From contig CAVURG010000006.1 in assembly GCA_963743865.1 (NCBI GenBank), positions 163,188 to 227,187 on the forward strand: a stretch of 64,000 nt of DNA, read 5' to 3'. Positions 7,288 through 39,703 of this stretch are shown one piece after another. The stretch is from an uncultured delta proteobacterium. Lineage in GTDB: Bacteria > Desulfobacterota > Binatia > Binatales > Binataceae. A program made the translations under genes and the position numbers. Numbering within the stretch: the stretch's first letter is position 1; each line of letters begins with the position of its first letter. The notes below the pieces were generated by a model. That model ran no database searches and had not been told where the DNA came from. It was given only the letters and a program-made list of their open reading frames with translations.

Positions 7288-7307
7288 CAGGCATCGCAAA
7301 CACCGCC

Positions 7308-7338: not shown

Positions 7339-7440
7339 ATTTCAACGGCGACGCCGCGCCGGACTGCGGTACGCGCGGTATCACGCCAGGCGCGCACGCA
7401 CGCGCCCATATCGAAAAGTCCGCAGCCAGGATTTTTCCCG

Positions 7441-8742
7441 ATGGCCAACCGAATCGAGGCCAGGCCGAGCGACGGCCTTTCCTACAATTCCACAGAGGCG
7501 AAGTACTGGGACCGCGCCGGACTCGACAAGGAAGTCGAGCGGGTGTTCGACATCTGTCACACCTGCCGTCTGTGCTTCAATCTTTGCCCGTCGTTCCCGG
7601 CGCTGTTCGACGCGACCGATCGCAACGACGGCGACGTGAGAGGGCTGACGGCGGCCGAGAAAGAGCGCGTGATCGAGCTCTGCTACGGATGCAAACTGTG
7701 CGAGATCAAATGTCCCTACACGCCGCGCGACGGTCACGAGTTCCAGCTCGATTTCCCGCGCCTCATCCTGCGAGCCAAGGCGGTGAGCGCGAAGGAAGAC
7801 GGGGTCAAGCTGCGCGAGCGGATGCTGGCCCGTCCCGATCAACTCGGCAAGGCGGGGGCGATGGCGCCGGCGCTGGCAAACTGGGGATGCCATCAAAAGT
7901 TCCAACGCGTGATGATGGAGAAGCTGCTCGGGATCGATCGCGGCAAGCTGCTTCCCGACTTCGCCGCCGAGACTTTCGACCAGTGGCTCAGGCGCACCGG
8001 GCTGCCCGCAATGCCGGCCGAGCCGACCGCGAAGGTCGCGATTTTCCCGACCTGTTTTGTCAATTACTACAACCCCGGGCCGGGCAAGGCCGCGGTCGAG
8101 GTCTTTGCGAAAAACGGATGCGCGGTGAAATGCCCGAAGCAGAACTGCTGCGGGATGCCCGCGCTCGACGGCGGCGACGTCGAGTTCGCGCGCAGGGAAG
8201 CGCGGGCGAATATCGATTCGATGCTGCCGCTGGTGCGCGAGGGCTACAAAATCGCCGCGATCAATCCGACCTGCTCGCTGATGATGCGCGCTGAGTATCC
8301 GAACCTGCTGGCCGGCGGCGAGGTCAGGGAGTTCGCGGCGGCGGTCGTCGATTCGCACGAGCTGCTCTACGAACTTCGCCGCGCCGGCAAGTTCAACAAG
8401 GAATTTCTGTCCACGCCCGGCACTATCGCGTACCACGTTCCGTGCCATCTCAAGGCGCAGGGCATCGGGCTGCGCTCGCGCGACCTGATGCGCCAGATTC
8501 CGGGCGTCGAAGTGACGACGGTCGATGCATGCACGGCGCATGACGGAACGTGGGCGATGAAAAAGGAGTTCTTCGCGCTCTCGATGAAGTGGGGCGAGAA
8601 GGCTTTCGCCGGGATGCGCGAAGCGGGAGCACGGGTGATGGCGACAGACTGTCCGCTGGCGGCGGTGCAAATCGAGCAGGCGACGGGAGTGCGTCCGCTT
8701 CATCCGCTGGAGGTGCTAGCGCGCGCGTACCAGCAGGGGTAA
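7441..8742 (+). CDS. Fe-S oxidoreductase (GlpC/HdrD-like: 4Fe-4S plus two CCG domains)
   Basis: CHTCRLCFNLCP, CYGCKLCEIKCP, QNCCGMP, NPTCSLM, YHVPCH, CTAHDG, DCPLA. Confidence 0.9.
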   Translation: MANRIEARPSDGLSYNSTEAKYWDRAGLDKEVERVFDICHTCRLCFNLCPSFPALFDATDRNDGDVRGLTAAEKERVIELCYGCKLCEIKCPYTPRDGHEFQLDFPRLILRAKAVSAKEDGVKLRERMLARPDQLGKAGAMAPALANWGCHQKFQRVMMEKLLGIDRGKLLPDFAAETFDQWLRRTGLPAMPAEPTAKVAIFPTCFVNYYNPGPGKAAVEVFAKNGCAVKCPKQNCCGMPALDGGDVEFARREARANIDSMLPLVREGYKIAAINPTCSLMMRAEYPNLLAGGEVREFAAAVVDSHELLYELRRAGKFNKEFLSTPGTIAYHVPCHLKAQGIGLRSRDLMRQIPGVEVTTVDACTAHDGTWAMKKEFFALSMKWGEKAFAGMREAGARVMATDCPLAAVQIEQATGVRPLHPLEVLARAYQQG

Positions 8743-25632: not shown

Positions 25633-25944
25633 ATGGCCGCACGGCCAGCGGCCAGCCGGCAATCTGCCTGGAATGAGTTCGGTGGGGAAACTGTCTCGGT
25701 GATAATTCCCGTCTTCAACGGCGAGCGTGCGATCGCGCGCGCGATCGATAGCGCGCTCGCGCAGGAATTCAACGGCGAGATCGAAGTGATAGTCGTCAAC
25801 GACGGATCGACCGACGGCACGCGCGCGAAACTCGCAAAATTCGGCGCTCGAATCCGAGTGATCGATCAAGGGAACGCGGGCGTCGCGGCTGCGGCGCAGC
25901 CGGTCGAGTCCGCCGGAACACGGCTTGCCGATCGTACGCAATGA
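25633..25944 (+). pseudogene. truncated GT2 glycosyltransferase (N-terminal ~90 aa only)
   Basis: VSVIIPVFNGERAIARAIDSALAQ...EVIVVNDGSTDGT...N.GVAAA, then loss of similarity. The next gene starts immediately, leaving no room for the rest. Confidence 0.75.
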
Positions 25945-25951
25945 GCCGCAA

Positions 25952-27184
25952 GTGAAACCCCGGTTGCTTATCACGATATACGCGAATCCGGATTATTATC
26001 CGCCGACGGTGTATGCAGTCCGGATACTAAGTGGCTATTTCAGGATACATATTCTTTGCCGGAATATGGATGAGCCGATTCAAGAATGGCCAGCCGATGT
26101 GACTATCGAGCGAGTCGGCGGGTACGCATCGCCGCGCGAAAAAGAGGCGGCGAGCGCGAGTGCAAAGCTGATCGAATATGCGAAATTCGCCGCTCGGACC
26201 CGCGCGCTGGTCAAGCAGATGCAGCCGGCGATTGTCTATTCGTACGACCCGCACGCGTTTGTCGCAAGCATTGCCGGGCGGCTGGGCCGGAGATCGACGC
26301 CGCTGATATTTCATCTCCACGAGTTGCCGGAGACGGGGAGTCTTTCGTGGACCTCCCTGCAAGCGTGGGTGGTAAAGGCGGCGCTGACAGGCACCAAGTC
26401 GGCAGATGCAGCAGTGTTTCCGGAAAAGTATCGCGCCCGCCACTGGCTAATGGCGGCAGGAGACTCGCGCGCGCCGATGATCGTGCCGAATTGTCCCGAC
26501 CGGAGTTACTTTCCCGGACCCGCGGATTGGAACGAGACGATCGCCGAGAGGTTTCGCGCGCGAGAAGTGGTTTACGTCGGTTACGCGGACGCGGACAACG
26601 GTCATCTGGAGGGACTGCGCGCGCTGGCGATGACGGAGGCCGAGATTCGAATGCGGGTGATTGGCAGTTTTCGTCCGGAATTCGAGACGAGCTTCAACGC
26701 GCTTGCACGCGAGCTTGGGGTAGCGGAACGAATCAGCCTGGACGGATGGATAGCTCATGATGAGGTTCCCGCGCACGCGTCTCGCGCGTCAGTGGGACTC
26801 TCGCTTCACAAGCCGGCGACGAAGAATCTGGAATATCTGGGATCGGCAAGCAACAAGCTGTTCGAATACGCGGCGATGGGATTGCCGGTGCTAGTGCCGG
26901 ATCGCGAGAGCTACCGCGACTTTCTGGGCGATGCGGAGTGGGTGACGTATGCCGACATCGACGATCCAGGATCGATCGCGCGCGCGATTACCTCGATCTT
27001 CGCGGACCGCGAGCGATATACCGCGATGAGCCGCGCGGCGCGGCGCGCATTCGAGGAACAATACAATTACGAGCGTGTCTTCGCACCGGTGCTCGAGCGC
27101 ATTTTCGAATTGAGCGGCGTGGCGAAACCCAGCCAGGTCCCGGCATGCGATCTTATCGAGCGGCAGGCGCCGCCGGCATTGTGA
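25952..27184 (+). CDS. glycosyltransferase family 4
   Basis: GTG start; ASNKLFEYAAMGLPV (GT-B C-terminal motif). Confidence 0.85.
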   Translation: MKPRLLITIYANPDYYPPTVYAVRILSGYFRIHILCRNMDEPIQEWPADVTIERVGGYASPREKEAASASAKLIEYAKFAARTRALVKQMQPAIVYSYDPHAFVASIAGRLGRRSTPLIFHLHELPETGSLSWTSLQAWVVKAALTGTKSADAAVFPEKYRARHWLMAAGDSRAPMIVPNCPDRSYFPGPADWNETIAERFRAREVVYVGYADADNGHLEGLRALAMTEAEIRMRVIGSFRPEFETSFNALARELGVAERISLDGWIAHDEVPAHASRASVGLSLHKPATKNLEYLGSASNKLFEYAAMGLPVLVPDRESYRDFLGDAEWVTYADIDDPGSIARAITSIFADRERYTAMSRAARRAFEEQYNYERVFAPVLERIFELSGVAKPSQVPACDLIERQAPPAL

Positions 27185-28341
27185 AGATCTGTGTTGGCAG
27201 CGCCGGCCGGTTTCACGCCTTCGATCTGGCGCGCCAGATGGAACGCCTCGGCCATCTGACCCGCCTCTACACTGCCTATCCGCGCTGCAAGGTGGATGGA
27301 CTGCCCGCCGCGAAAGTGAGTACCTTCCCCTGGATCATGGGACCCGCGACGCTCGCGGGACGATTCGGACTGCCGGGGCTTCGCGAGCGCCTGAATTTTC
27401 CGATGATCGAGACGTTCGATCGCTGGATGGCTGCGCGGCTCGAGCCCTGCGACGTTTTCCATTGCCTGTCCAGCTTCGGCTTGCAGAGCCATCGCGCGGC
27501 GCGCATGCGCCACGGCGCGCTTACGGTATGCGACCGCGGTTCGGCGCACATCGTTTTCCAAAATGAGATTCTGCGCGAGGAATATGCCCGCTTCGATATC
27601 CCATATCGCGGTACCGACGCGCGCATCGTCGAGCGCGAGCTTGCCGAGTACGAATTCTGCGACCTGATCAGCGTGCCGTCCAGCTTCGCGCTGCGATCGT
27701 TCCTCGAGAAAGGCGCGGCGCGCGAAAAGCTGCGGCTTAATCCCTACGGCGTCGATCTCTCGATGTTCCATCCGATGCCCAAGCGCGACGCCGTCTTCCG
27801 CGTGCTGTTTGTCGGTTCGATTTCGATTCGCAAGGGAATCGCTTACCTGCTCGAGGCGGTAAAGCGCGCTGCGATTGGGGCGCTTGACCTGGTGCTGATT
27901 GGAGACGTCGATAAGGACGCGGCGCGCGTCCTCGCCAAGTGTGATATGCCCCTGCGCCATCTGGGCGTGCTCCCCCGCGCCAAACTCGCGGAGCATTATT
28001 CGCAGGCGTCTGTGCTGGTCCTCCCATCGCTGGAAGAAGGGCTGGCGCTGGTGCAGGCGCAGGCGATGGCGTGCGGCGTCCCGGTGATCGCGACGACCAA
28101 CACCGGCGCCGAGGATCTGTTTACCGACGGTGTCGAAGGGTTCATCGTTCCGATCCGCGACGCGGCCGCGATTGCCGACAAGATCGTCTTTCTGTACGAG
28201 CATCCCGAAGTCCGCGACGCGATGGCTGCCGCCGCTCTTGCCCGGGTGCGCGCGCTGGGCGGATGGAACAGCTACGGCGAGCGGATGGCGTCGATGTATC
28301 AGGCCGCGCTTGCCGCACGCGCATCCGCGGCGATGAAATAG
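27181..28341 (+). CDS. glycosyltransferase family 4
   Basis: GTGA overlap with the previous gene; RKG..YLLEA; VLVLPSLEEGLALVQAQAMACGVPVI. Confidence 0.92.
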   Translation: MKICVGSAGRFHAFDLARQMERLGHLTRLYTAYPRCKVDGLPAAKVSTFPWIMGPATLAGRFGLPGLRERLNFPMIETFDRWMAARLEPCDVFHCLSSFGLQSHRAARMRHGALTVCDRGSAHIVFQNEILREEYARFDIPYRGTDARIVERELAEYEFCDLISVPSSFALRSFLEKGAAREKLRLNPYGVDLSMFHPMPKRDAVFRVLFVGSISIRKGIAYLLEAVKRAAIGALDLVLIGDVDKDAARVLAKCDMPLRHLGVLPRAKLAEHYSQASVLVLPSLEEGLALVQAQAMACGVPVIATTNTGAEDLFTDGVEGFIVPIRDAAAIADKIVFLYEHPEVRDAMAAAALARVRALGGWNSYGERMASMYQAALAARASAAMK

Positions 28342-28347
28342 TTATCG

Positions 28348-29292
28348 GTGGACCGCATGATGCGTGAACAAATCATCGGGCGCGCCAAAGCCCTGATTCG
28401 GCCGGTCGCGCGGCATCGGTTTCTGCTCGAGCGCATGAAATTTCTGGGCGAGACTATACTCAGTGCTGAGCAGGGCAATGACCGATTGGCTGCGATGATC
28501 CATCACGGCGGCGCGGCGGGCAAAATTGGCGCGACCGAGATCAAGGTCTCACGAGTTTACCTGCGCCGGCGCGACGACGACGGCCTCTGTCACAATTTCG
28601 GCCACTATGCATGGTGGGCGCACGTCACCGCCGGCATCTATCCGCCCGATCCCCCGACGCTGTCGCGCTTTTGCCGCTGCTACCTGGAAACTCTCGAAGG
28701 TATTGACCTGCTTGCCGTGTGGTTCAATTTCGGCGAGGCCGCCGCCCGCCGGCGCTATGCTCCCGGCGCAACGCTGTGCGAGCTTTCTGCGCTTGAGCCG
28801 TATTACCATGAGCGGCCATGGAGCGCGCAGTTGGCAGGTAAACGGGTCGTGGTGGTAAGCCCGTTCGAGAAGTCGATCCAGGCTCAATATCAGCGGCGGG
28901 AAAAGATTTGGGCGGCCAAGCCCGAGGTGCTGCCCGCGTTCGATCTCCGCATCGTGCGATGCCCGCAGCCTGCGGGGATTATCGACCGGCCCGAATATCC
29001 CGACTGGTTCACCGGGCTGGAAGCGCTGAAAGCGCAGCTCGGCGCCCGTCCGTTCGATGTCGCGATTATAGGTGCGGGCGCATGGTCGATACCGCTGGCG
29101 ATCCATGCGAAGTCGTTGGGCGCCTTCGGGATTCATCTGGGCGGAGCGACGCAGTTGCTATTCGGGATTATGGGCGGGCGATGGGTATCCAATCCGGAAA
29201 TCGGCGCGTTCGTGAATGACGCGTGGACGCGCCCGTCCGAAGACGAGCGGCCGCGAAATTACCGCCTTCATGAAAACGGTTCGTACTGGTGA
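28348..29292 (+). CDS. conserved polysaccharide-locus protein (possible GT-D-like fold)
   Basis: LSALEPYYHE.PWS..L.GKRVVVVSPF..SI..QY, FDVAIIG.GA..IPLA.HAK..G..GIHLGGATQLLFGI.G.RW. This pattern is recalled from glycan loci; the fold assignment is tentative. Confidence 0.6.
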   Translation: MDRMMREQIIGRAKALIRPVARHRFLLERMKFLGETILSAEQGNDRLAAMIHHGGAAGKIGATEIKVSRVYLRRRDDDGLCHNFGHYAWWAHVTAGIYPPDPPTLSRFCRCYLETLEGIDLLAVWFNFGEAAARRRYAPGATLCELSALEPYYHERPWSAQLAGKRVVVVSPFEKSIQAQYQRREKIWAAKPEVLPAFDLRIVRCPQPAGIIDRPEYPDWFTGLEALKAQLGARPFDVAIIGAGAWSIPLAIHAKSLGAFGIHLGGATQLLFGIMGGRWVSNPEIGAFVNDAWTRPSEDERPRNYRLHENGSYW

Positions 29293-29336
29293 ATTGAAGA
29301 TTCCGTTGATCCGCTCTTTTGGAAATCGGAGATTGC

Positions 29337-30434
29337 GTGCGAATCCTTTACGCTGAGACGAGCGACTTTCTGCCCACCAGCGCGCACTTTCTGGAAGCGC
29401 TCGCGGCGATGGCGGAGCGCGGCGAATGCGAGTTCACGTTCTTCGATGAAGCCGGGTATCGCCGCCCGCAGCGTTCGATCGCGGGGCGAATCGTGCGGCG
29501 CCTGGCCGGCCACCCGGCCGGTTATCGCGCGCTCAACGCCGCGCTCATAGCCGAGGCGCGGCGCTTGCACCCCGATCTCGTGCTGATCGGCAAGGGCGCC
29601 TATTTCGCTCCCGCCACAATTGCCGCGGTTCGCACCGCGACGGGAGCATCGATGGTCAACTGGGCCACCGACGATCCTTTCAACCCGGCCAACAGCACCC
29701 GCGACCTGCTTGAATCGATCGCACTCTACGACCTCTACGTATGCACCAAGCGCGCGATAATGGACGACGCGCGGCGCGCGGGATGCGCCAACGTCGCCTA
29801 CCTCCGCTTCGGATACAAGCCGCAGGTGCATTTTCCCGAGGCGCCCGCGACCGATGACGAGGCGCGGCGCTTCGAATCCGACGTGACATTTATCGGCGGC
29901 GGGGACGATGACCGCGCTCCATACTTCGAGACGATCGTCCGCGCGATCCCGGAGCTTCGCCTGCATCTGCACGGCGGTTACTGGAATCGCTATCCGAAGC
30001 TGCGCCCATATTGGCGCGGCAGCGCAACCGGGCGCGATTTCCGTCTCGCGGTCGGCGGCGCAAAAATTTCGGTCAATCTGGTGAGGCGCGCGAATCGGGA
30101 CGATCACGTAATGCGCACCTTTGAAATTCCCGCGTGCGGCGGCTTCATGCTCACGGAGAGATCCGCCACCCACGATGAATTATTTTCCGAAGACAAGGAA
30201 GCGGCGTTTTTCAACTCGCCCGATGAACTGGTCGCCAAGGTCCGCAGTTATCTTGGGCGCGATGAAGATAGAGTCAGGATTGCCGCCGCGGGGCATCGCA
30301 AAATCACTCAGGGGCGGCATACCTACGACGATCGGCTGGCGGAAATTATCCAGGCTGCGCGATCGGTGAAAGGATTGCAGAGGCCGGCGACGGTTGGCGC
30401 CGCGCAAACCAATGAGATCGAATCGAATGGCTGA
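29337..30434 (+). CDS. CgeB/DUF3880-type glycosyltransferase (Glyco_trans_1_2)
   Basis: GTG start after GGAG; VNWATDDP; AKISVN; HVMRTFEIPACGGFML; HTYDDR. Confidence 0.85.
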   Translation: MRILYAETSDFLPTSAHFLEALAAMAERGECEFTFFDEAGYRRPQRSIAGRIVRRLAGHPAGYRALNAALIAEARRLHPDLVLIGKGAYFAPATIAAVRTATGASMVNWATDDPFNPANSTRDLLESIALYDLYVCTKRAIMDDARRAGCANVAYLRFGYKPQVHFPEAPATDDEARRFESDVTFIGGGDDDRAPYFETIVRAIPELRLHLHGGYWNRYPKLRPYWRGSATGRDFRLAVGGAKISVNLVRRANRDDHVMRTFEIPACGGFMLTERSATHDELFSEDKEAAFFNSPDELVAKVRSYLGRDEDRVRIAAAGHRKITQGRHTYDDRLAEIIQAARSVKGLQRPATVGAAQTNEIESNG

Positions 30435-30435
30435 A
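30418..30435 (+). repeat. 18-bp direct repeat, copy 1 (TCGAATCGAATGGCTGAA)
   Basis: Identical to 31409-31426; contains overlapping ATG start and TGA stop. Confidence 0.9.
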
Positions 30436-31425
30436 GCCTTCAAGCAACCTATGGCGCAATTGTCAGTAGGGAGCGATTGTCCAATCTGCATGAGTCCGCG
30501 AGCGCTTCAACTAGCTCATCGCTTTGAAGAAGACCCATATTATGTCGTGACGTTGTAAGGCATGCTGCGTCGAGACGATCCTGCCTCATCCTACAAGCAG
30601 GCTTTTGAAGGAATTCTATTCCGACTACCACAATACTCGAACCGCCGAAGAGCAAATGCCGCTTCTCATCGGGCGATCCGTTGAATTGCTCGAAGTGTTG
30701 CTAAGTCATCTGCCTCTTGCTCCAGGACGAAAGCCGTTGCGATACATGGAAGTGGGATTCGGCAACGGAGCGAGTCTGCTGGCCGCGGCTCAACTGGGTA
30801 TGGAGGCTGTTGGCTTTGATTTGGATCCGAGCAACGTACGGGAAGTTACCCAACGGGCTCAGTCCAGAGGTCTCAGTGTGCAGCTCCGATGCGGCGATAT
30901 CGGTGAGGCTATCGAGGGAACGGAACCGGTCGACTTCGTCAAGGCTTCGCAGTTGATCGAACACCTCATCGATCCTGTTAGTTTTGTCCGATCAATCTCA
31001 AAGGTAATGACGCCCAGGGGGTATCTTTACCTCGAATGTCCGAACAACAACGCGGCGTTTCTTCGAATCAAGAATCGACTCCGAAAACGATTCGCGCGAA
31101 TGAATTTCTACAATTCCCTCAAGATCGGCAAGCATCTCTGGGGTTTCAGCCAGTCTGGCATGAACCGGCTGTTGCGGCTTTCAGGCTATGAAGTGGTATT
31201 CTGCTCTAGCTATCCGCTTCGCCATCGCTATTTCCAGCCGGAAAATCTCTTTTGGTATCCAAGTGTGCGGTCCGGCGTGGCCGAAGCATTTCGAGTCGGC
31301 AAGCGTTTCCTCTTTTGAAGTCGATGATTCCTGTCTTCGACGGCTTGGCGTCTTTCGCGCTTTCGGAAGGAATAGGACTCGCAACGCTGGCGCGAAAGCA
31401 GGATGAAGTCGAATCGAATGGCTGA
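30427..31425 (+). CDS. class I SAM methyltransferase with N-terminal CxxC..CxxC Zn ribbon; frameshifts at ~30551 and ~31315
   Basis: MAEAF..CPIC + RCKAC joins ORF 30605..31318 (MEVGFGNG, SQLIEHLIDP, LYLECPN) after a 1-bp correction. A second shift continues LKSMIP...QDEVESNG*. Visibly AT-richer than neighbours. Confidence 0.75.
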
Positions 31426-31426
31426 A
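31409..31426 (+). repeat. 18-bp direct repeat, copy 2
   Basis: Identical to 30418-30435. Confidence 0.9.
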
Positions 31427-32948
31427 CAGTTCGAATCCGCGCCGCTGCGTCCGCCGGATGACGAGTGGTATGCGCGAATCACCACGCCGAGGCCGGGGTC
31501 CGCCAGTCTGGGCAAGGCGCTGAAGCTGTTGGCGGCGGTCGCAATCGCGTTGATCGCTCTGAACCTCTACGCTCCCGCTTCGCCGACGATCCTCGAGCGA
31601 GTATTCGCGTCCGCGATACTGGCCTCGCTCGCGCTTCCGGTCTGGCTATGGATGTCAGGCGCGGATCGAACGATTCCGTTCATGCCATTCCTGACGCTGA
31701 TGTTCGCCTATTACTACGCGCTGCCGGTTTTCCTGTTGCACCGATATGCCACCGGACTGTTCAAGCCGCCTGTTGCCGAACATTTCATCACACTCGCGCT
31801 CGGATACTCACTACTCGGTCTCTACTGCATGTTTGCCGGATACTATGGACCGGCGAGATGGCTATTCGCACCGATACTACCGCGATTCAACTTGCAATGG
31901 CGCGACGAGCGAGTAGTGAGGCTGGTCGCGCTGATGCTGGGAGTCGGGGGATTGTTCATGTCCTCCTCGCAGTGCCGCGTTTCTGCCCGAGAGTCTGGCC
32001 CAGATCGGCGTATTCGCGGCTGACTTATCGATGGTTGGAATCTGCACGCTGGTCGCGCTTCAGTTGGCGGGAAGACTGGATCGGATCACATCGGTGTTCG
32101 TCTGGGGGTTTCTGATTCCGGTCAGAATCGCAATCGGCCTGGGCAGCGGCTCGGCCGGGGGCCGTCTGATGGTCGGCGTCGCCGTCGCAATGATTTTCGC
32201 TTCCGTGCGCCGATCGATCCCATGGAAGACGCTGACTGCTGGGCACTATCGTGGCGGTGTTCATCATCCGGCCCGCAGAGGTGCCGTATCGCGCGGCGAC
32301 CTGGGGCGGAAGATTATCGGATGCGGGCGCGATCGAGAAAGCCCGCCTGTACGGAGATATTCTTTACCGCATCACGATCGGCGGGGCGGTGGAGCCGCAA
32401 GTGCTGATCGAATTCGGAAGCCTGCGCCTGGCGCAATTCACAACGTTCGGCGAAGTAATCGCGGACACGCCCGCAATGGTGCCTTTTTGGGGGGGCGAGT
32501 CTTACTATCCGATCCTGTTCAAACCGATTCCGCGCGTCGTCTGGCCGGACAAACCGGAAGAGTTGAGCGGACAAACGTTTGGCCATCGCTACGCCTTGAT
32601 CTCCGCCGGGAACACTGACACTTCGATCAATCTTCCGCAGCTAGTCGAGTTGTATGCGGAACTTCGGACTCACCGGAGTGATCGCGGGGATGTTCATATT
32701 CGGGTTGATCTACCGGCTGCTGATCGAGATGTACGTTCATCCCGGAATGGGGCTCGGCGCTCTGGTTGGCGCCGTTTACGTTTCGTCGAAGTTGCTTGAT
32801 GTCGGCTCCGCCGCCTCGATGGTTTTCGGAGGGATCCCATGGAGCCATCATCTTCATCGCGCTGATTCACCTGTTCATCCAATTCGCAGAGGTTGACGCG
32901 ATGGCGCTGGGGCAGCTTGGCTTCGAAAAAGGAGTCCGCCGTATCTGA
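31418..32948 (+). CDS. Wzy-like polysaccharide polymerase (multi-TM), about 4 frameshifts
   Basis: Fragments 31403..32023, 32031.., 32251..32799, 32654..32896 and 32766..32948 join into a polytopic protein with IPRVVWPDKP and ELYA-NFGLTG motifs typical of Wzy. Confidence 0.68.
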
Positions 32949-33002
32949 TCCAGTCACAATTCAACGCGAATATTACCGGCGCACCGCGTCGCAATATGAC
33001 GA
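32945..33002 (+). repeat. 58-bp direct repeat, copy 1 (copy of the 5' end of the 34472 methyltransferase)
   Basis: CTGATCCAGTCACAATTCAACGCGAATATTACCGGCGCACCGCGTCGCAATATGACGA, identical to 34479-34536. Confidence 0.92.
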
Positions 33003-34419
33003 GCTGCGCCTTGTGCAGCCCGCCGCCTGATCGCGGGCCGGCGATCGTGTTCCGCGCGACGCTGGCGCTAACGCTCGCCAACGCGCTCTGGTTCATCTGG
33101 TCAAACCGGTTCATCCCGATGTCGGACTATCCCGACTGGGTATACCAGGGGTGGATACTTTCGGGCATCCTGCGCGGTGCCGCCCATCCGCTGTATCACT
33201 TCAGATCGTATCCTCCAACGCACGCCGCAGTCACAATAGCCACCGCTCTTCTCGACTACGGCTTCGGTGCAGAGACCTCGGCAAAGCTGGTGTTGTCAAG
33301 CGCGGTCTGCGCATTCGCGATTGGCAGCACCTACCTTCTGAAAGCGTGTGGGGCCTCCGAGCGGCACCCGCTTCTGTATGTGCCGCTGCTGTTCATCTTC
33401 GACACTTGGTTCTTCACCGGCGAGATTGATTATTATCTCGCCTTGACGGGGTTCTTCTTTCTGGCGGGATATCTGCTGCGGCGCGCGGACTCGCCCGGTC
33501 GAATTAACCCGCTGGTCGTGCTCGTGGGTCTTCTGGCGATTTTTGTGGCGCATTTGATCGTCTACCTGGCGTGCGGCGCTGTTTGTATCGCGATAGTTCT
33601 TGCGCATCCAAGCCCGGTCAAGGCGCGCCGACTCCTGCTGCCGGCGCTGGCCTCGGTGCCGATCCTCGCATGGTATGTGCTGGGCCGGGCGACGTCTCAT
33701 GACTTGGGCACTCAGCCGCTTTTGGTGCCCTGGACGGCCCGCCAGCTCGCCAGCAACTTCATCGATGCGTTCTCGCTGTTTCACGCGTTTGCGCCGTGGC
33801 TCAGTCCGCACTCGAAGTTGATGCACCTAGCGGCTATGTGCAACTTGATCAGCGATGGCGGCATCTTTACTCTCTTTTGCGTGTGCGCGGTGATGTGGTT
33901 CAGGGGTACTCGTGATGATGCCGCGCCCCTGCTCGCAGCCCTGTTGTGCCTGATCGGATACGTCGCAGGAGGCTATGCGATCGCCGGTGTGTTCGGCGCG
34001 GAACGCCTGACCTACCCGGCTGCATGGCTGGTCCTTGCATGGCTGGCTGGAAATTGGACTCCCGCGCGAGAGTCTGCCCGCCTCGTAGCCATCTGTGTGA
34101 TTGGCGCCGTGCTAGCTATTCAGTGCGTTTACGTCGATCATGCCGTGGGACAAGTGTGCGACCGCTTGGCCCAAACCTCGCCGATCGCCTCGCGCAAGCG
34201 CCGTCGCGCAAGGACCTCTGTTCGATATACGAGCCTTACTTCCAGCAAAGCTGGGGCGGCCAACACCGTAGCGGCTGGGAGCGCTTCGTTCCGGACCACG
34301 CCAGTGTCATTCGCCTGCCGTATTATCTCTATATAGAGCGGGGAGAGGCGGCCCCTATTTTTGAAGCAGGGATCTTCAATTATTCGGGGCGTGGAGATAA
34401 CAACGACCTGTGCAGGTAG
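32996..34419 (+). CDS. polytopic membrane protein, GT-C-like; one frameshift ~34175
   Basis: About 11 TM segments; PMSDYPDW acidic motif after TM1; soluble C-terminus continues in ORF 33946..34419. Confidence 0.6.
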
Positions 34420-34471
34420 CCTGTTCGCGCTTGCCGTCGCGCAAGGCGCAATTGCGAGGGGAAGCGAATAG

Positions 34472-35188
34472 ATGACGGCTGATCCAGTCACAATTCAACG
34501 CGAATATTACCGGCGCACCGCGTCGCAATATGACGACCGGCACGTGCACTCGGATGGTGAGCATACGTTCGCGCTGTGGTTCATGGTGTCGATGATCCGT
34601 TACTTGGAGTGCCGCTCAGTGCTGGACATTGGCTCTGGAACCGGGCGCGCGCTGATAATGCTCAAGAAAGAGATGCCCGGGATTCGAATCTGCGGGATAG
34701 AGCCGTCACCTGAACTACGGGCCGCGGCGCAAGCGAAGGGCCTGGCGCCGCATGAGATAGTGGATGGCGACGCGCAGGCGCTCAAATATCCCGACGGTGA
34801 CTTCGACCTGGTGTGCGCCTTCGGCGCATTGCATCACATTCCGAAGCCCTCGCTTGCGGTCGGCGAGATGCTGCGGGTATCCAGGCGAGCGATCTTCATC
34901 TCGGACGCAAACAACTTCGGCCAGGGCTCGACGCCGGCGCGCGCTGTCAAACAGATCGCGAACTTCCTCGGACTATGGCCGTTGCTCGATTTCATCAAGT
35001 CGCGGGGTAAGGGCTATCGCCTCTCGGAAGGGGACGGTCTTTCATACTCCTATTCTGTATTCAACGATTACGCGCAGGTCCTGCGCGCCTGCGCGTCCGT
35101 CCATCTATTGAACACGACGGCAGCGGGCGTGAATCCGTATCGGACCGCATCGCATGTCGCGCTGCTCGGCATCAAATCAGGATCGTAA
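34472..35188 (+). CDS. class I SAM methyltransferase
   Basis: SVLDIGSGTG, GIEPS, DGDAQALKYPDGDFDLVCAFGALHHI. Confidence 0.88.
   Translation: MTADPVTIQREYYRRTASQYDDRHVHSDGEHTFALWFMVSMIRYLECRSVLDIGSGTGRALIMLKKEMPGIRICGIEPSPELRAAAQAKGLAPHEIVDGDAQALKYPDGDFDLVCAFGALHHIPKPSLAVGEMLRVSRRAIFISDANNFGQGSTPARAVKQIANFLGLWPLLDFIKSRGKGYRLSEGDGLSYSYSVFNDYAQVLRACASVHLLNTTAAGVNPYRTASHVALLGIKSGS
34479..34536 (+). repeat. 58-bp direct repeat, copy 2
   Basis: Identical to 32945-33002. Confidence 0.92.
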
Positions 35189-35190
35189 GG

Positions 35191-36448
35191 GTGATTTTTT
35201 CAGACGAAGACGCCGGCGCAATCCGCGTCCTGCACGTAAGTCCGTTCTTCGCACCAGCGTGGGTTTACGGCGGACTGGTCGAGTCGGCCTATCAGTTCGC
35301 CCGGCATCTGGCGCGCGCGGGAGCGGCGGTTCGGGTGCTGACCACGGACGCGAACGGATCGGGAAAGAAGCTGGACTCGGCGGCGAAGGCGCCGTACACG
35401 CGCGGCCAGGGATTCGAAGTTCGCTACTGCGCGCGAGTCGCGCGTCAGTCGGTATCGCTCGAGCTTCTCGGCGCGCTCGTCGAACAGGTGCGATGGGCCG
35501 ACGTGGTTCATCTGCACGCGGCGTACTCGTTTCCGACTATTCCAGCCTTACTCGTGGCGCGGATGCTGGAACGGCCGGTGGTATGGACTCCGCATGGCGC
35601 GCTGCAGCGCTGGAGCGGGTCGCGGCGAACCGCGGCTCAAGTCGCTGTGGGAGAAGGTGTGCAGCCTGGTTGCGCCGCGCGCCCTGGTGCTTCACCTGAC
35701 CTCGCAGAGCGAGGTCGAGGAAACTCGCGCACGGTTTCCGCGCGCCGCCATCGGACTGATTCCTAACGGAGTCGAGATTCCGCAATCGCTTCAGCGCGAG
35801 CCACGCGGCGCTGGGCTGCGGCTCGGATTTGTCGGCCGCCTCGATCCCAAGAAGGGAATTGAGAATCTGCTCGCCGCCTGTCGCATTCTGAAAGAGCGGG
35901 GCGGGCCGGTTTTTTCGCTCGCGATCGCGGGTTCGGGCTCGAGCGGCTACGAGGCAAAACTTCGCCGCGAGATCGATCGCCTCGATCTGTCCGGCGAGGT
36001 CGCACTTCTTGGCGACCTTCGCGGCGAGGAAAAACAGCGGATGTTCGAGCGGACCGACGTCGTCGTGGCGCCGTCGTTCACCGAGAATTTCGCGATAGTC
36101 GTAGCCGAAGCACTGGCGCACGGCGCCGCCGTGATTGCGAGCACCGGCACTCCGTGGAAAGAAGTCGAAAAGATGGGCTGCGGGCTGTGGGTCGGCAACG
36201 ATCCCGCGAGCCTGGCGGACGCAATCTCCACGGTAAGCACGATGCCCGTCGCAGAGATGGGTGAGCGCGGACGGCGGTGGATGGCGGCCGCCTTTTCGTG
36301 GGACAAATGCGCGCTGCAAATGCTGGCGCTCTACCAAGACCTGCTGGCTCGGCCCGGCGATCGGGATGCGCGCCGCCGCGCATCGGTGGTAAGCCGATGC
36401 GGCTCTCCGCGTGGTTGTGCGGATGGCGCGCCGCCACCGGGACGATGA
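35191..36448 (+). CDS. glycosyltransferase family 4; frameshift ~35630
   Basis: N-part RVLHVSP..YGG..., VWTPHG; C-part FVGRLDPKKGIENL, APSFTENFAIVVAEALAHG. The true C-terminus is uncertain. Confidence 0.85.
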
Positions 36449-37875
36449 CAACGTTCGCGCGACGCGAGTGGTTATTCATTGCGCTGGTGGCTGCGTTCTG
36501 CGCCATCTTTCTGCTCGAGTATCCGGCCTCGTTCGCAATCGCCGACGAGTGCGAGATCCTCTCGCTCGCCTACAGCATTGCGCACGGCACGGCTTATCCC
36601 GACCGTGCCGGACTGCTCACCTGGAACCCGTCGATGGAACTCGCGGTCGGCGGCCACCGCATCGTCAAGTACTCGCCGTTTCACGCGATGCTGCTGGCGC
36701 CGGCGGTTGCGAGCGACTGGCGGCTCGGTTTCCTGGTGAGCGCGGCGTTTTTCATCGTGGGCGCGTTTGCGGTGCGTGCGATGCTCCGCGACGCGGGACT
36801 CGCGACCGACTGGTGCATCCTGTATTTCCTGCTGCCCGGGATGCTCTACTACTCGGCCACGCTGATGGCCGCCGTTCCGAGCGCGGCGATGGGCGCAGTC
36901 GGAGTCGCTCTGCTGTGGCGCGAACGCGCGCGCCGCGTATCGGGAGCGCTCGCGCTCGGCGCCGCGGTCCTGCTGCATGAGTGGATGGCGGTATTTGCGA
37001 TCGCGTCGGCGGGAGCGTGGTGGCTGTCGCGGCCGCGCGCCCGGCGATGGTCCGACGCGGTGGCGCTCGCGGCGGGCGCCGCGCCGGCGATTATTGCGCT
37101 CGGAGCGTACAACTATGCCACCACGGCGTCGGCGCTGCGCGGAGGCTACGCGATCAACGGCGAGGCCTTCTGGTTTACCGGCGAGCACTTCGCGTCGTTC
37201 TTCCCGTTCTACGTCGCATCGATCGTGATTTTCCCGGTAGCCGGACTTGCAGCGCTTTCGCCGCGATGGTCGCGAGGTTGGCAAACGCCGGCCGCGGTGG
37301 CTGCCGTAGTGCTGGCGGCGTCGCTCTACGGTTATCGCGACGGCCTTACCAGCGGACTCACGCCGGCGATGGCGATGCTCGCGGGTGCGGTCCCCGGGCA
37401 ACGCTTTATCCTGCCGGCATCGGTAGTCGCGTGCGTGCCGGCGGTGCGATGGCTCGATCAGCGGCTCGGGCAACGGGGATTCGCCTGGACCACCGCGCGC
37501 CGGTGCGCGGCGCTCGCCGCCTTCGTGGCATGCTTCGGGGTGATGGCCACGCTCCACCAGGACTTCCTGCGCGCCAACGCTGCGGTGCAGACGGCGATCG
37601 CGCGCGCGGTTCCGGCCGGAGGACAAATCGTGGGCGCCGGCGAGGTGCTCAAGGAACTCGCGCCCGTGTACCGAAACGTCCGGCTGCGCCAGGTGGCTCC
37701 CGACGATCCCAATGTCGCGTCCGCCGCCGATTCATACCTGGTCTGGATGGGCGCGCCCGGCGCCGAGCCGCCGCCGGATTGGACGCGCGGCAGGACGACC
37801 GAACTGGTCCGTGCGCGGTCGTGGGCATGGAATCGCGATCTCTGGATCGCCTGGCCCCGCGCCGCCCACGCTTAG
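36397..37875 (+). CDS. polytopic membrane protein, GT-C-like
   Basis: IADECE acidic motif after TM1, about 12 TM segments, QRFILP motif, short soluble C-domain. Start is 36397 or 36445. Confidence 0.6.
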   Translation: MRLSAWLCGWRAATGTMTTFARREWLFIALVAAFCAIFLLEYPASFAIADECEILSLAYSIAHGTAYPDRAGLLTWNPSMELAVGGHRIVKYSPFHAMLLAPAVASDWRLGFLVSAAFFIVGAFAVRAMLRDAGLATDWCILYFLLPGMLYYSATLMAAVPSAAMGAVGVALLWRERARRVSGALALGAAVLLHEWMAVFAIASAGAWWLSRPRARRWSDAVALAAGAAPAIIALGAYNYATTASALRGGYAINGEAFWFTGEHFASFFPFYVASIVIFPVAGLAALSPRWSRGWQTPAAVAAVVLAASLYGYRDGLTSGLTPAMAMLAGAVPGQRFILPASVVACVPAVRWLDQRLGQRGFAWTTARRCAALAAFVACFGVMATLHQDFLRANAAVQTAIARAVPAGGQIVGAGEVLKELAPVYRNVRLRQVAPDDPNVASAADSYLVWMGAPGAEPPPDWTRGRTTELVRARSWAWNRDLWIAWPRAAHA

Positions 37876-37951
37876 CTCATCGGTTTGCGCACGGTGACGT
37901 ACGCGCAACAATTTGGAGAAATATAAGGCAAGAATCAGTTCGCGGGCATCA

Positions 37952-39703
37952 ATGTTAGTCGTAGGAATCAACGCATATCACGGCGACGCGAGCGCAGCCG
38001 CAATCGTGGACGGGATGCTGGTGGCAGCCGCGGAAGAGGAGCGCTTCAACCGCATCAAGCACGCCGCCGGCTTTCCGGCTGAGGCCTTGAAGTACGTGGT
38101 GTCTGCCGCCGGCGCATCGCCGCGCGACATCGACATCATTGCCGTCGCGCGCGATCCGTGGGCGCGAATCATGCGCAAGGCGTGGTACGCGCTGAAGATG
38201 CCGTCGGCTGCGCGCGACAGGCTGAGCGTGCAATCGCGCTTTGCCTCGATTGGCGCGGAGGCCGCGCGCGCGCTGGGCGCCGGCGGGAGTTCGATTCCGG
38301 TGCGCCGCGTCGAGCACCATCGCGCGCATCTCGCGAGTTCGTTTCTGGTCTCTCCGTTCGACCAGGCGGCGCTGCTGTCGATCGACGGGTTGGGCGACTT
38401 CGCCAGCGCGATGTGGGGCGTGGGGCGCGGCGGTACGATTTCGCCGATGGGCGTGGTGACATTTCCGCATTCGCTGGGAATCTTCTACACCGCGCTGACG
38501 CAGTACCTGGGGTTTCCGAAATACGGCGACGAATACAAGGTGATGGGGCTGGCGTCGTACGGGGAGCCGGAGATGCTCGAGGAGTTCCGCAAGATCGTGA
38601 TCGCGCCCGACGGCGGGCGCATGGATTTCATGCTCGCGCCGGAATATTTCACCCATCAGAGGTCGGGCGGTGAGATGACGTGGCGTGCAGGCGAGCCCAC
38701 GATCGGAAGGCTGTACTCGGACTTCCTGGTGACCCGGCTGGGCCCGGTGCGCGATCCGGCCGAGCCGGTGGACAAACGCCATATCGCGATCGCGGCGTCG
38801 ATGCAGCGGCGGCTCGAAGAAGTGATAATCGATCGGCTGCGAAACTTGCAGCGCGCGACCGGACTGAAAAAGCTCTGCCTTGCGGGCGGCGTTGCCTTCA
38901 ACTGCGTGGTCAACGGCAAGATCCTGGAGCAGACGGGCTTCGAGGACATCTATATACAGTCGGCGGCGGGCGATGCGGGCCTGGCGATAGGCGCGGCTTT
39001 CGACCAATGGCATTCGAGCCCGTCGCGGCCGCGCGAGTTCGTGATGGAGCATGCCAATTGGGGGCCCGAATTCAGCGCCGATAAGATCGCGGGATTACTC
39101 AGATCGCGCGAATCTGAAATAGCCAGTCAGGGCTGCGTGATTAGCAAGATCGAAGATGAAGACGAACTCTGCCGCGCCACTGCCGCGACGATCGCGGATG
39201 GGCAGGTCGTGGGATGGTTCCAGGGGCGGATGGAGTGGGGTCCGAGGGCGCTGGGCAATCGCAGTATCCTGGCCGACCCGCGCCGGGCCGGGATGCGCGA
39301 CATCCTGAATTCGAAAATCAAGCGCCGCGAAATGTTCCGGCCCTTTGCGCCTTCGATTCTGGAGGAAGCCGCCGCTGACTACTTCACGCAGTCCTATCCG
39401 TCACCATTCATGCTGATGGCATACTCAGTGCGGCCCGAGAAGCGCGCGGTAATTCCGGCCACGACCCACGTTGACGGAACGGGACGGCTGCAGACGGTGA
39501 GTGCGCGGCAGAACCCGCTATACCACAAGCTGATCCGCGAGTTCGGCCGCCAGACCGGAGTGCCGGTGCTGCTCAACACCTCATTTAACGAAAACGAACC
39601 GGTGGTTTGTCGCCCCGAACAGGCGCTCGATTGTTTCCTCAGAACGAAAATGGACCTGCTGGTGATGGGACAGTTCGCCGTTCGCCGCGGCGGCGGGAAC
39701 TAG
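37952..39703 (+). CDS. carbamoyltransferase (NodU/CmcH/TobZ family)
   Basis: GINAYHGDASAA, AEEERFNRIKH, VEHHRAH, IDGLGD, EYKVMGLASYG, AGGVAFNC, GWFQGRMEWGPRALGNRSILADP, THVDGTGRLQTV, LLNTSFN. Confidence 0.95.
   Translation: MLVVGINAYHGDASAAAIVDGMLVAAAEEERFNRIKHAAGFPAEALKYVVSAAGASPRDIDIIAVARDPWARIMRKAWYALKMPSAARDRLSVQSRFASIGAEAARALGAGGSSIPVRRVEHHRAHLASSFLVSPFDQAALLSIDGLGDFASAMWGVGRGGTISPMGVVTFPHSLGIFYTALTQYLGFPKYGDEYKVMGLASYGEPEMLEEFRKIVIAPDGGRMDFMLAPEYFTHQRSGGEMTWRAGEPTIGRLYSDFLVTRLGPVRDPAEPVDKRHIAIAASMQRRLEEVIIDRLRNLQRATGLKKLCLAGGVAFNCVVNGKILEQTGFEDIYIQSAAGDAGLAIGAAFDQWHSSPSRPREFVMEHANWGPEFSADKIAGLLRSRESEIASQGCVISKIEDEDELCRATAATIADGQVVGWFQGRMEWGPRALGNRSILADPRRAGMRDILNSKIKRREMFRPFAPSILEEAAADYFTQSYPSPFMLMAYSVRPEKRAVIPATTHVDGTGRLQTVSARQNPLYHKLIREFGRQTGVPVLLNTSFNENEPVVCRPEQALDCFLRTKMDLLVMGQFAVRRGGGN

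Follow-up and report, generated by a model that had tools for sequence, protein, structure and literature searches.

How did two single genes come to lie between direct repeats in a tightly packed operon, with the frames on either side kept intact, and is a dedicated cassette system needed to explain them? The question is raised by the Wzy-type polysaccharide operon of an uncultured soil Candidatus Binatus (Binatota), contained in a stretch of 64,000 nt (GCA_963743865.1, contig CAVURG010000006.1, positions 163,188-227,187 of the forward strand) that is referred to below as the window. Every ORF between 15 and 41 kb of the window is a polysaccharide gene. The host genome (3.67 Mb) was compared with 19 congeners and with metagenome contigs.

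Two repeat pairs at translationally coupled junctions

A first-pass annotation had reported two genes flanked by direct repeats at start/stop junctions, and both pairs were found where it had placed them. The features involved are:

25687-25929, + strand: remnant of a 339-codon GT2 glycosyltransferase gene of which the first ~85 codons remain (64% tblastn identity to the GT2 of locus L054, residues 3-85)
29319-30434, + strand: glycosyltransferase GT (Glyco_trans_1_2; Pfam PF13524, E 1.6e-31), with orthologues in 19 congeners
30412-30435, + strand: junction copy 1a, the former GT-stop/POL-start overlap, single-copy in empty alleles
30451-31425, + strand: cargo 1, the class I SAM-dependent methyltransferase MT1 (Pfam Methyltransf_23/11, E 1e-15)
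31403-31426, + strand: junction copy 1b, where POL (start ATG 31403) overlaps MT1 (stop TGA 31423-31425)
31403-32948, + strand: Wzy-like polysaccharide polymerase POL (513 aa in G008; intact in G008, G002 and G005)
32945-33007, + strand: repeat copy 2a, relic of the first ~20 MT2 codons, with the native MT2 leader and the POL stop still attached
33013-34419, + strand: cargo 2, the polytopic membrane protein MEMa (native start GTG 33013, stop TAG 34417-34419)
34420-34478, + strand: spacer imported with cargo 2, its first ~18-30 nt homologous to the post-MEMa spacer of L054
34472-35188, + strand: intact class I SAM-dependent methyltransferase MT2, 238 aa (Pfam Methyltransf_11/25, E 1e-17)
34479-34541, + strand: repeat copy 2b, codons 3-23 of intact MT2
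35191-36448, + strand: GT4-family glycosyltransferase, the conserved downstream neighbour (Pfam Glyco_transf_4, Glycos_transf_1; 418-aa ORF in G008)

At site 1, ATGAGATCGAATCGAATGGCTGAA (30412-30435) and ATGAAGTCGAATCGAATGGCTGAA (31403-31426) match at 22 of 24 positions, the last 18 exactly. The GT stop (TGA 30432-30434) falls within copy 1a, the sequence of which is, in empty alleles, the 3' end of GT and the 5' end of POL at once. In the filled allele the former POL start codons in this copy (MRSNRMAE) head a short relic frame preceding MT1, and the last seven codons and stop of MT1 derive from the duplicated GT tail. MT1 carries a CxxC motif at its N-terminus and is intact in G008 (L033:6040-7014, 324 aa). 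POL, for its part, gave family matches below the cut-offs (NCBIfam XrtY-associated Wzy-like, E 1.9e-9; Pfam O-ag_pol_Wzy, E 0.009). The methyltransferase gene entered the 23-nt GT/POL overlap with duplication of that overlap, an event that kept both the GT stop and the POL start and gave MT1 an ending copied from the GT tail.

At site 2, the repeat is exact over 58 nt (32945-33002 and 34479-34536) and matches at 61 of 63 positions when extended to 63 nt. Copy 2a starts on the POL stop (TGA 32946-32948), and copy 2b starts 7 nt past the MT2 start (ATG 34472). In clean assemblies copy 2a is in frame with MEMa, the corresponding ORF of G008 (L033:8478-10001) reading DPVTIQREYYRRTASQYD and, immediately after the joint, ELRLVQPPPDRGP; the MEMa homologue in L054 begins at the corresponding GTG. 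The remainder of the spacer provides MT2 with a Shine-Dalgarno-like GAGGGGAAG and the new start ATGACGG. MEMa matched no Pfam family. Its AlphaFold model (pLDDT 72.5, pTM 0.78) found AftB, STT3/PglB, AftD and ArnT as best PDB matches (TM 0.41-0.48, E 3e-3 and weaker), and on this modelling the protein is probably a GT-C-fold glycosyltransferase. This GT-C-like gene was inserted 58 nt downstream of the point at which the POL stop and MT2 coding sequence meet. The MEMa frame is now headed by the initiation region of MT2 with its first ~20 codons, and intact MT2 by a second copy of the MT2 head with a start supplied by the insert.

The first-pass caution about an error-prone assembly was well placed. 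About nine insertions of 1-2 nt in 11 kb of the window are missing in G008 and in short-read contigs of four runs, including frameshifts in MT1 (30550, 31288) and GT4 (35632), four 1-nt insertions that break POL (31970, 32234, 32657, 32843) and errors in MEMa (33019, 34179-80); runs X1, X5 and X6 lack the additional C at 33019. With roughly one indel error per kb, the repeats might be suspected of being artefacts as well, either two strain haplotypes assembled in series or long-read errors. However, the same structure recurs in G008, in VFSW01 metagenome contigs broken at the repeat, and in contigs of run X1, where the contig of the 58-mer has a depth of 33.8, twice the 13.7-16.4 of flanks and cargo. 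Because they are present in three independent assemblies the repeats are not artefacts, and the chance that this explanation is right is negligible. Moreover, a second match to either repeat occurred in 0 of 100 dinucleotide shuffles of the window, and the 58-mer, with exactly two occurrences in the 3.67-Mb genome, is the longest isolated local direct repeat there (scan filtered to at most two genome copies per repeat).

Empty and alternative alleles in the genus

The ancestral layout is GT-POL-GT4, with GT-POL-MT2-GT4 in some lineages. Two junctions of these layouts are overlaps: the end of GT shares 23 nt with the beginning of POL, and the end of POL shares 8 nt (ATGCCTGA) with the beginning of MT2. 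Eleven congeners have GT-POL-GT4 only, with a POL/GT4 overlap of (A/T)TGA; G025 (L035) and loci L067-L071 have GT-POL-MT2-GT4 with a single copy of each junction; and site 1 is empty in G005. Orthologues of MT2 in G008, G002 and G025 are 84-98% identical. The first-pass annotation had staked its reading on the existence of empty alleles, and these were found in the eleven congeners, in G025 and in metagenome contigs. The repeat pairs are thus target duplications from two separate insertions into translationally coupled junctions. That the inserts sit in start/stop junctions with frames and coupling kept, as first claimed, was confirmed.

In other lineages these junctions hold different cargo, and one cargo gene occupies two different junctions. 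Site 1 holds a PMT_2 membrane protein in G002, with a 42-nt duplication (38/42) using the POL start codons; in G035 a membrane protein of 487 aa, preceded by a POL relic of 12 codons; and another methyltransferase, without duplication, in L054 and L076. MEMa itself recurs in L054 (88.6% identical across window positions 33002-34434), located there between MT2 and GT4 and flanked by TCAGGATCGTAAG, which is exact over 13 nt and degenerate over 35 nt, a match reached by 0 of 1000 shuffles. The 13-nt MT2 tail carries the GT4 ribosome-binding site. In G005, the 58-nt MT2 head ends in a TGA overlapping the ATG of a different methyltransferase (MT3), and the 13-nt tail is also kept, both being relics without a retained MT2 gene. 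Contigs of run X4 add further combinations, in one of which the joint falls at position 30 within the MT2 head. Across the alleles this head is followed by MEMa, by MT3 and, in X4, by two unknown genes.

In total, at least eight layouts occur on a three-gene core within one genus. Between G000 and G008, MEMa-MT2 is 98.5-98.8% identical and GT, POL and GT4 are 94-95% identical; because the former exceeds its flanks, import of MEMa-MT2 as a donor block is plausible from the sequences. The truncated GT2 mentioned in the first-pass annotation was verified (25687-25929). A related locus has GT2 and two methyltransferase genes at this place, and L054 2985-5502 is absent from the window (blastn).

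Recombination without dedicated machinery

No PF00589 integrase was found in the window, and the genome has only four tyrosine-recombinase matches, none of the recombinases lying within 15 kb on either side of the inserts. Likewise, no Rfam family was matched across 28-37 kb of the window, the repeats form no hairpin and fold in no unusual way (z 0.3-0.6), the cassette ends have no common motif, shared 8-mer or terminal inverted repeats, and the cargo has no additional copies elsewhere in the genome. On the absence of a linked recombinase, attC or IS in the window, the two analyses agree. Each insert consists of the cargo gene alone, with duplications of 13, 24, 42 and 58-63 nt. A transposon or IS was rejected, there being no transposase or inverted repeats at the inserts and no fixed duplication length; an integron cassette, as the window gave no attC fold, Rfam match or tyrosine recombinase; and the attL/attR of an integrative element, as no recombinase is near and the repeats differ at every site.

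Elsewhere in the genome, about 13 similar footprints were observed with unrelated cargo, low-GC single-gene inserts at gene 3' ends, and the process is therefore not special to the polysaccharide operon. These inserts, with their flanking direct repeats, could also reflect an unlinked site-specific recombinase, integron- or tyrosine-integrase-like, that integrates circular cassettes at junctions and leaves the repeats as attL/attR, and a 417-aa integrase-like protein is encoded at C6:862537. Such an enzyme is nevertheless very unlikely to account for the locus, given that the repeats are target-derived, specific to each site in sequence, variable in length (13-63 nt), devoid of core, end motif or hairpin, and more than 15 kb from any recombinase.

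The explanation that we favour, with a probability of about 0.6, is that the genes were gained horizontally in the ordinary way, through illegitimate or one-sided-homology recombination, and that selection followed; it matches insertion with long target duplication as described for restriction-modification genes (Nobusato 2000, Gene 259:99; Furuta 2010, NAR 38:2428, PMC2853133). In those cases the repeats often span start/stop sites, and gene fusions occur with no mobile element (PMC2853133). Shared with the present locus are the gain of one to a few genes, the duplication of a unique target of tens of bases and variable length, a single-copy empty site in a relative, the absence of transposase, integrase and inverted repeats, and intact target genes; operon-like targets and joint fusions have also been reported. 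Site 2 (58-63 nt) and the G002 allele (42 nt) pass the cut-off of >30 bp used by the authors of that work, whereas site 1 (24 nt) and L054 (13 nt exact) fall below it. Further differences are that the cargo here is polysaccharide-modifying (methyltransferase, GT-C-like), that the host is an uncultured member of the Binatota, and that the same junctions were hit repeatedly by varied cargo.

As for the recombination route, we infer that the inserts came by horizontal exchange between related loci. A homologous crossover in the shared downstream gene may have been combined with an illegitimate microhomology joint just inside the 5' end of that gene; alternatively, the inserts may have arisen by insertion with long target duplication, the mechanism of which is still unexplained. 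Under either route selection would have retained only products with all reading frames and ribosome hand-over intact, which is why the surviving joints would hug starts and stops, and no dedicated recombinase or recognition site would be involved. The varying breakpoints and lengths, together with the events without duplication, argue against a dedicated cassette system and in favour of selection acting on the products of non-specific recombination. Site 2 has at its left joint a possible microhomology of 1-5 nt (A/GCTG) to L054 intergenic sequence, which is ambiguous. In G000 as in G008 the two copies of the 58-mer do not differ at any position, which fits in-situ duplication better than a diverged donor and recipient. 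Furthermore, the breakpoint in the MT2 head is 58|59 for both MEMa (G000) and MT3 (G005), in apparently independent events, a coincidence unexpected under random illegitimate joints.

Copies identical at origin are also accounted for by tandem duplication across the junction, the interior being swapped later by homologous recombination with a diverged locus carrying the extra gene. Duplication and substitution is the alternative model published for the same footprint (Lim et al. 2012, PMC3457768), and the two orders MT2-MEMa (L054) and MEMa-MT2 (G000) are those expected from a trimmed duplicated MT2-MEMa unit. However, at least three steps are required per site, an intermediate with both copies complete was found neither in the 19 congeners nor in the metagenome contigs, and the 32-44 nt between the MEMa spacer and the second MT2 copy have no L054 counterpart; we consider this sequence of events improbable. 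A donor with MEMa directly upstream of an MT2 starting ATGACGGCTGATCC would favour one-sided homologous capture.

In the reading closest to the first-pass proposal, the junction segments are portable linkers. Short-homology recombination at them would bring cassettes in, release them as circles and swap them, giving surface variation in the population with no linked recombinase. The GT/POL overlap, the 58-nt MT2 head and the 13-nt MT2 tail would then form a recombinase-free, integron-like system shuffling single polysaccharide-modifying genes, each linker at the same time coupling translation, as a relay reading frame, to the gene inserted behind it. Several cargoes behind one MT2 head, the 58|59 breakpoint common to G000 and G005, an X4 contig joining a G000-type left context to a G005-type right joint, one cargo at two junctions with duplication at each, and the at least eight layouts in the genus all speak for linkers. 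Yet ordinary homologous exchange of locus segments after rare illegitimate events gives all of these patterns too, the site-1 duplications differ (24 vs 42 nt) and several events lack one, and 13-24 nt of homology is short for RecA-dependent exchange. Excision or switching found no support in the contigs inspected, which drop rare variants: no empty or circular form appeared in insert-carrying populations, the cargo depth in run X1 (16.4) equals that of the flanks (13.7-15.8), and no empty joints occurred among contigs of four runs. The span of duplication lengths, 13 to 58-63 nt, and the duplication-free events likewise tell against a dedicated system. Portable linkers, their shuffling of single genes and their double role as couplers are hence unlikely in our estimate; if real, they would amount to recombinase-free shuffling of surface genes in Binatus populations.

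Relation to known systems and implications

The mechanism was first proposed to be undescribed, a claim that does not stand, as the footprint had been published as insertion with long target duplication (PMC2853133) and remnant-marked junctions are known from O-antigen clusters (PMC5399914). In O-antigen and capsule clusters, one-sided homologous replacement leaves gene remnants (Reeves and co-workers; Kenyon et al. 2017, PMC5399914). The present operon resembles these in being a hypervariable Wzy-type locus with one end homologous and the other marked by a remnant, and in having mature modules with stop/start overlaps for translational coupling. It differs in that clean duplications with both neighbours intact are found instead of the usual remnants or IS, and in that the newcomer takes its initiation region from the relic of a downstream gene head. 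Integron cassettes, similarly, are single promoterless genes joined to an array and driven by upstream signals, but attC, IntI and attI are lacking here and the repeats are target-derived and vary by site.

In homology-facilitated illegitimate recombination, a homologous anchor is combined with a microhomology joint and foreign DNA is added beside the anchor. The process was reportedly described in naturally transformable bacteria by de Vries and Wackernagel and by Prudhomme et al., both in 2002. Its published products typically delete recipient DNA, whereas here a duplication is found, and the likeness would be one of sequence compatibility. In Rhs/CDI toxin-tip displacement, an incoming cassette recombines at its own conserved segment, pushes the old segment downstream and leaves direct repeats. 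In such loci a long, conserved coding core is repeated and the 3' end is the displaced piece, in contrast to the short junction segments repeated in this operon. One displacement of the Rhs/CDI type was observed in the host genome (C6:3006367).

How insertion with long target duplication comes about has been an open question since 2000, and prior cases were mostly single pairwise comparisons of restriction-modification genes. To this previously described footprint the present locus brings an unusually rich set of related alleles, a natural series in one genus with one cargo at two junctions, one junction with many cargoes, and in-frame fusions to a displaced initiation region. It can be tested here whether breakpoints cluster or fall at random, whether recipient or donor supplied the duplicated segment, and whether coupling depends on the relic frames. 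The about 13 further such inserts in the same genome suggest that this insertion route contributes noticeably to its gene gain. The locus also illustrates how surface-polysaccharide diversity originates in the Binatota, a widespread uncultured soil phylum.

Two repeat pairs in a Wzy-type polysaccharide locus

The genome under study (G000, an uncultured Candidatus Binatus; 3.67 Mb in 11 contigs, one of 3.57 Mb) carries a Wzy-type polysaccharide locus at 15-41 kb of the window. The locus runs from a Wza-like exporter, Wzi and Wzz through GT9 and GT4 transferases and a methyltransferase to the genes considered here, and on to a carbamoyltransferase and an epimerase. The first-pass annotation had described direct repeats at start and stop junctions around two of these genes, and a repeat search of the window, together with shuffles and relatives, recovered both pairs as described:

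Repeat pair 1 (copies 1a/1b, GT/POL junction, cargo MT1): 30412-30435 and 31403-31426, 24 nt, 22/24 matching
Repeat pair 2 (copies 2a/2b, head of MT2, cargo MEMa): 32945-33007 and 34479-34541, 63 nt, 61/63 matching, first 58 exact

Shuffling the window 100 times produced no second match to either repeat. Genome-wide the 58-mer occurs exactly twice, and it is the longest isolated, genome-unique local direct repeat in G000, where 31 local direct repeats of at least 18 nt without flanking similarity were counted in 3.57 Mb. Given one pair, the chance of another within 4 kb is approximately 7%; local enrichment is therefore modest on its own, and the argument rests on comparative data instead.

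The window had also been suspected of being error-prone, and comparison with G008, the closest relative, and with short-read contigs confirmed insertion errors. Over 11 kb the window is 95.6% identical to G008 with 13 indels. Nine of these are frame-breaking insertions of 1-2 nt on the side of the window, and all nine are left out in short-read contigs of sequencing runs X1, X4, X5 or X6. These insertions are errors of the long-read assembly underlying the window, and gene structures were therefore taken from G008 (locus L033). Within 27000-38000 they occur about once per kb and are absent from G008 and the contigs of the four runs; they break POL four times, as well as MT1, MEMa and GT4, and the same rate probably applies to the whole window. 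The repeats themselves are not an assembly artefact, as both pairs are present in G008 and independent assemblies agree: metagenome contigs (VFSW01) end and resume exactly at the 58-mer, and in X1 the 58-mer forms a separate contig at depth 33.8, twice that of the flanks (15.8 and 13.7; cargo 16.4).

In clean sequence the genes are arranged as follows:

GT 3' end: TGA 30432-30434, reading ..NEIESNG before the stop
MT1: ATG 30451, TGA 31423-31425; 324-aa class I SAM methyltransferase with a CxxC head (Pfam E 1e-15)
POL: start 31403 inside the second copy, stop TGA 32946-32948; 513 aa
MEMa: own start GTG 33013, stop TAG 34417-34419
MT2, intact: 34472-35188, beginning via ATGACGG and containing repeat 2b

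The last 23 nt of GT contain the former POL start, ATGA(G/A)ATCGAATCGAATGGCTGA, the frame of which reads MKSNRMAEALK in G008 and stops 5 nt before the MT1 ATG (window 30451). MT1 in turn extends into the second copy, where its last residues before the stop, ..QDEVESNG, are the duplicated GT tail. POL is probably a Wzy-like polymerase, with weak family matches, and its stop forms the first bases of repeat 2a. Together with approximately 40 nt before it, this repeat corresponds to the original MT2 leader plus the opening ~20 codons of MT2. In G008, X1, X5 and X6 the frame of the MT2 head (the first 58 nt of MT2) runs without a stop into MEMa, as ..DPVTIQREYYRRTASQYD followed by ELRLVQPPPDRGPAIVFRAT..; in the window this frame is broken by an additional C at 33019, which is an assembly error. 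The GTG at 33013 is where MEMa begins in a related locus in which it stands alone. Behind MEMa a 52-nt spacer containing GAGGGGAAG, together with a new ATGACGG, leads into repeat 2b, and GT4 begins two bases after MT2. The spacer was also compared with the MT2 head and tail, of either of which it might have been a decayed partial copy, and no significant resemblance emerged (402/2000 and 127/2000; 168/1000 shuffles).

Both MT1 and MT2 belong to the class I methyltransferases and are of an ordinary kind. MEMa gave no sequence match in Pfam, NCBIfam or PDB, the searches including solved structures. An AlphaFold model based on 11 homologues (pLDDT 72.5, pTM 0.78) best matched the GT-C enzymes AftB, STT3/PglB, AftA/AftD and ArnT (TM 0.41-0.48, E 3e-3 and weaker), and an invariant SDYPDW motif lies near the start of the protein. 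Judging from the predicted fold, it is reasonable to regard MEMa as a putative GT-C-like glycosyltransferase.

Empty and filled junctions among relatives

A genus search covered 36/36 species genomes, in 19 of which the GT-to-GT4 segment was mapped; metagenome contigs and contigs from an exact-protein look-up were mapped as well.

Layouts of the GT-to-GT4 segment (G, genomes; L, related loci; MT3 and MT4, further methyltransferases)
A: GT-POL-GT4; 11 species and one truncated contig
B: GT-POL-MT2-GT4; G025, L067-L071
C: GT-MT4-POL-MT2-GT4; L076
D: GT-MT4-POL-MT2-MEMa-GT4; L051, L054-L056
E: GT-POL-MEMb-(MT2 head relic)-MT3-GT4; G005, L052
F: GT-C1 (PMT_2 family)-POL-MEMb-MT2-GT4; G002
G: GT-MT1-POL-(MT2 head)-MEMa-MT2-GT4; G000, G008, VFSW01, X1
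H: GT-(POL head relic)-C1'-POL-GT4; G035

GT and POL share one copy of (A/G)TGAGATCGAATCGAATGGCTGA at their junction in layouts A, B and E. Layout B has one ATGCCTGA overlap at the POL/MT2 junction, with one 58-nt copy after it, and the overlap of POL with GT4 in layout A is (A/T)TGA. It follows that the filled state is the derived one and that there are empty alleles, in layouts A and B and, for GT/POL, also in E; their absence had been named beforehand as the result that would speak against cassette exchange.

The individual insertions differ considerably. At the GT/POL junction MT1 is associated with a 24-nt duplication and the cargo of G002 with one of 42 nt (38/42); the latter is read from the duplicated POL start (VRSNRMAE followed by GLRQ..), and its stop overlaps the POL ATG. 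Downstream of the left joint MT1 and the G002 cargo agree at 10/14 positions at a fixed offset (local-alignment shuffles, 201/2000). If genuinely shared, this sequence would mean one event followed by a swap of cargo. In G035 the cargo lies behind the first 12 POL codons and POL has gained a new N-terminus, while insertion of MT4 was accompanied by loss of the last five GT codons, a new POL N-terminus and a GTGA overlap. MEMb is inserted approximately 14 codons before the POL stop, and the old POL end is left between MEMb and MT2. MEMb homologues (66-69% identity), preceded by a methyltransferase-like gene, occur at a second, different locus in several Binatus species (L058-L065; e.g. at ~1.45 Mb of the G007 chromosome), and are a possible source of MEMb in the GT-POL operon of G002 and G005.

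At site 2 of G000, MEMa follows the MT2 head and the duplication measures 58 nt. L054 carries the same gene (88.6% nt identity over window 33002-34434) after the complete MT2, flanked by TCAGGATCGTAAG, which is the MT2 stop plus the GT4 ribosome-binding site; this repeat is exact over 13 nt and degenerate over 35 nt, and was reached by 0/1000 shuffles. In G005 MT3 has replaced the MT2 body, leaving 58 nt of head, which end in a TGA overlapping the MT3 ATG, and 13 nt of tail. Contigs of X4 show a further joint, at position 30 of the MT2 head, and also a G000-type left context combined with a G005-type right joint.

Gain and loss extend beyond these two sites. GTC499, a 499-aa polytopic membrane protein (window 36396-37923) encoded between GT4 and the carbamoyltransferase, represents a further insertion into this operon, since it is absent from L054, L067 and G025; GT4 has gained a longer C-terminus reading into it, and no convincing target duplication was found at this insertion. 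The truncated GT2 reported nearby was recovered as a gene remnant at 25687-25929 (85/339 codons). As L054 has a GT2, a methyltransferase and a Methyltransf_21 gene at the same place, the lineage of the window has lost ~2.5 kb here. Finally, in L072-L075 (~6619-7711) a POL homologue, of which the final 126 codons are present, overlaps an MT2 homologue (76% identity) by the same 8 nt, ATGCCTGA. The pair lies next to cobalamin genes in surroundings unrelated to the operon; this is a broken piece of the operon relocated in another organism.

Possible routes of insertion

The duplications are target-derived and 13, 24, 42 or 58-63 nt long, and some events delete instead. The ends of 15 inserts showed no shared motifs or inverted repeats, the genome holds no extra copies of the MT1 or MEMa cassettes, and no Rfam family was matched in 28-37 kb. 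A hairpin or attC-like structure in the repeats was ruled out (fold z 0.3-0.6). The earlier observation that no recombinase is linked to the locus holds: the window contains no integrase and none of the genome's four tyrosine-recombinase hits, and all genes within 15 kb are polysaccharide genes. Variable target-derived repeats and deletions, with no end motif, fold or recombinase, count against a site-specific system.

The MEMa-MT2 block (32945-35188) is 98.5-98.8% identical between G000 and G008, compared with 94-95% for GT, POL and GT4, which suggests that the block was exchanged between the two lineages after their divergence. At the left joint of site 2 the MT2 head meets sequence homologous to intergenic DNA upstream of MEMa in L054 (GCTG(C/G)GCC..GTGCAG), with 1-5 nt of possible microhomology. 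We propose that insertion may occur when related loci recombine in the course of exchange: homology in MT2 would anchor a donor fragment, MEMa-spacer-MT2, which would be joined illegitimately at position 58 of the recipient MT2, and such one-sided capture would yield the recipient MT2 head, then the cargo, then a complete MT2. Two observations fit less easily with this proposal. G000 and G008 each have two 58-nt copies without a single mismatch, and a third strain has one difference, as in-situ duplication would predict; and the MT2 head is broken at the same nucleotide in G000 and G005, with unrelated cargo. If there is a donor locus in which MEMa immediately precedes an MT2 that begins ATGACGGCTGATCC, one-sided homologous capture would be favoured; without such a locus, the identical copies would favour duplication in situ.

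Contigs of the four runs contained no joints skipping either cargo, although rare events could be missed in contigs, and in X1 cargo depth equals flank depth. The position of the inserts may reflect selection. In overlapping genes only insertions that duplicate the overlap would leave both genes intact, and cargo without initiation signals of its own would be expressed only behind a start already in use. Relic frames whose ends coincide with or closely precede the next start (TAA-5 nt-ATG; ATGA; GTGA) may likewise keep ribosomes flowing.

The same footprint elsewhere and its precedents

Approximately 13 further isolated, unique direct repeats, 20-42 nt long and 0.6-2 kb apart, bracket low-GC single-gene inserts in the genome (0.51-0.60 versus 0.62), the first copy often being the last 20-50 nt of a gene, stop included.

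Further repeat pairs in contig C6 of G000, outside the window (first/second copy)
775071/775944
568724/569935
3130837/3131829
815504/817367
2174806/2175550
3144158/3146157
2308511/2309703
3267516/3268242
1761150/1763234
2972308/2974059
2489427/2490258
451364/452046
Rhs core repeat: 3006367-3007499, 20 nt at the core end (..DPIGFGGG..YVDPSGL), bracketing a low-GC (0.51) C-terminal tip

Their cargo comprises a dodecin, a UPF0047 protein, a DUF6338 protein, a PMT_2 (GT-C) transferase, several membrane proteins and the Rhs tip, the last showing the usual picture of Rhs toxin-tip displacement. No recombinase or common end motif was found among these inserts. From their distribution, the footprint appears not to be specific to the polysaccharide operon. 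Separately, tRNA 3' halves recur in C6 as 37-55-nt repeats ~1-3 kb apart (692327/693342, 1628890/1629989, 998323/1001496), representing either neighbouring tRNA genes or small integrated elements.

Comparable insertions are on record. Furuta et al. 2010 described restriction-modification genes inserted with long, variable, unique target duplications and without a mobile element, and their cases include an operon-like insertion target and genes fused at the joint (PMC2853133). Site 2 agrees with such insertions in every feature by which they were defined, and site 1 in every one except the 30-bp length cut-off. For O-antigen clusters, Reeves and co-workers have reported module replacement in which one end recombined homologously and the other is marked by a remnant (PMC5399914). 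The proposal of an undescribed mechanism is thus not borne out, its footprint being already present in PMC2853133. What stands of the cassette-exchange interpretation is junction-preserving gain and exchange, with empty alleles and no linked recombinase. Comparison of the loci indicates that this gain and exchange of genes is real in the polysaccharide operon; relative to known insertions the cargo and the host are new, the mechanism is not.
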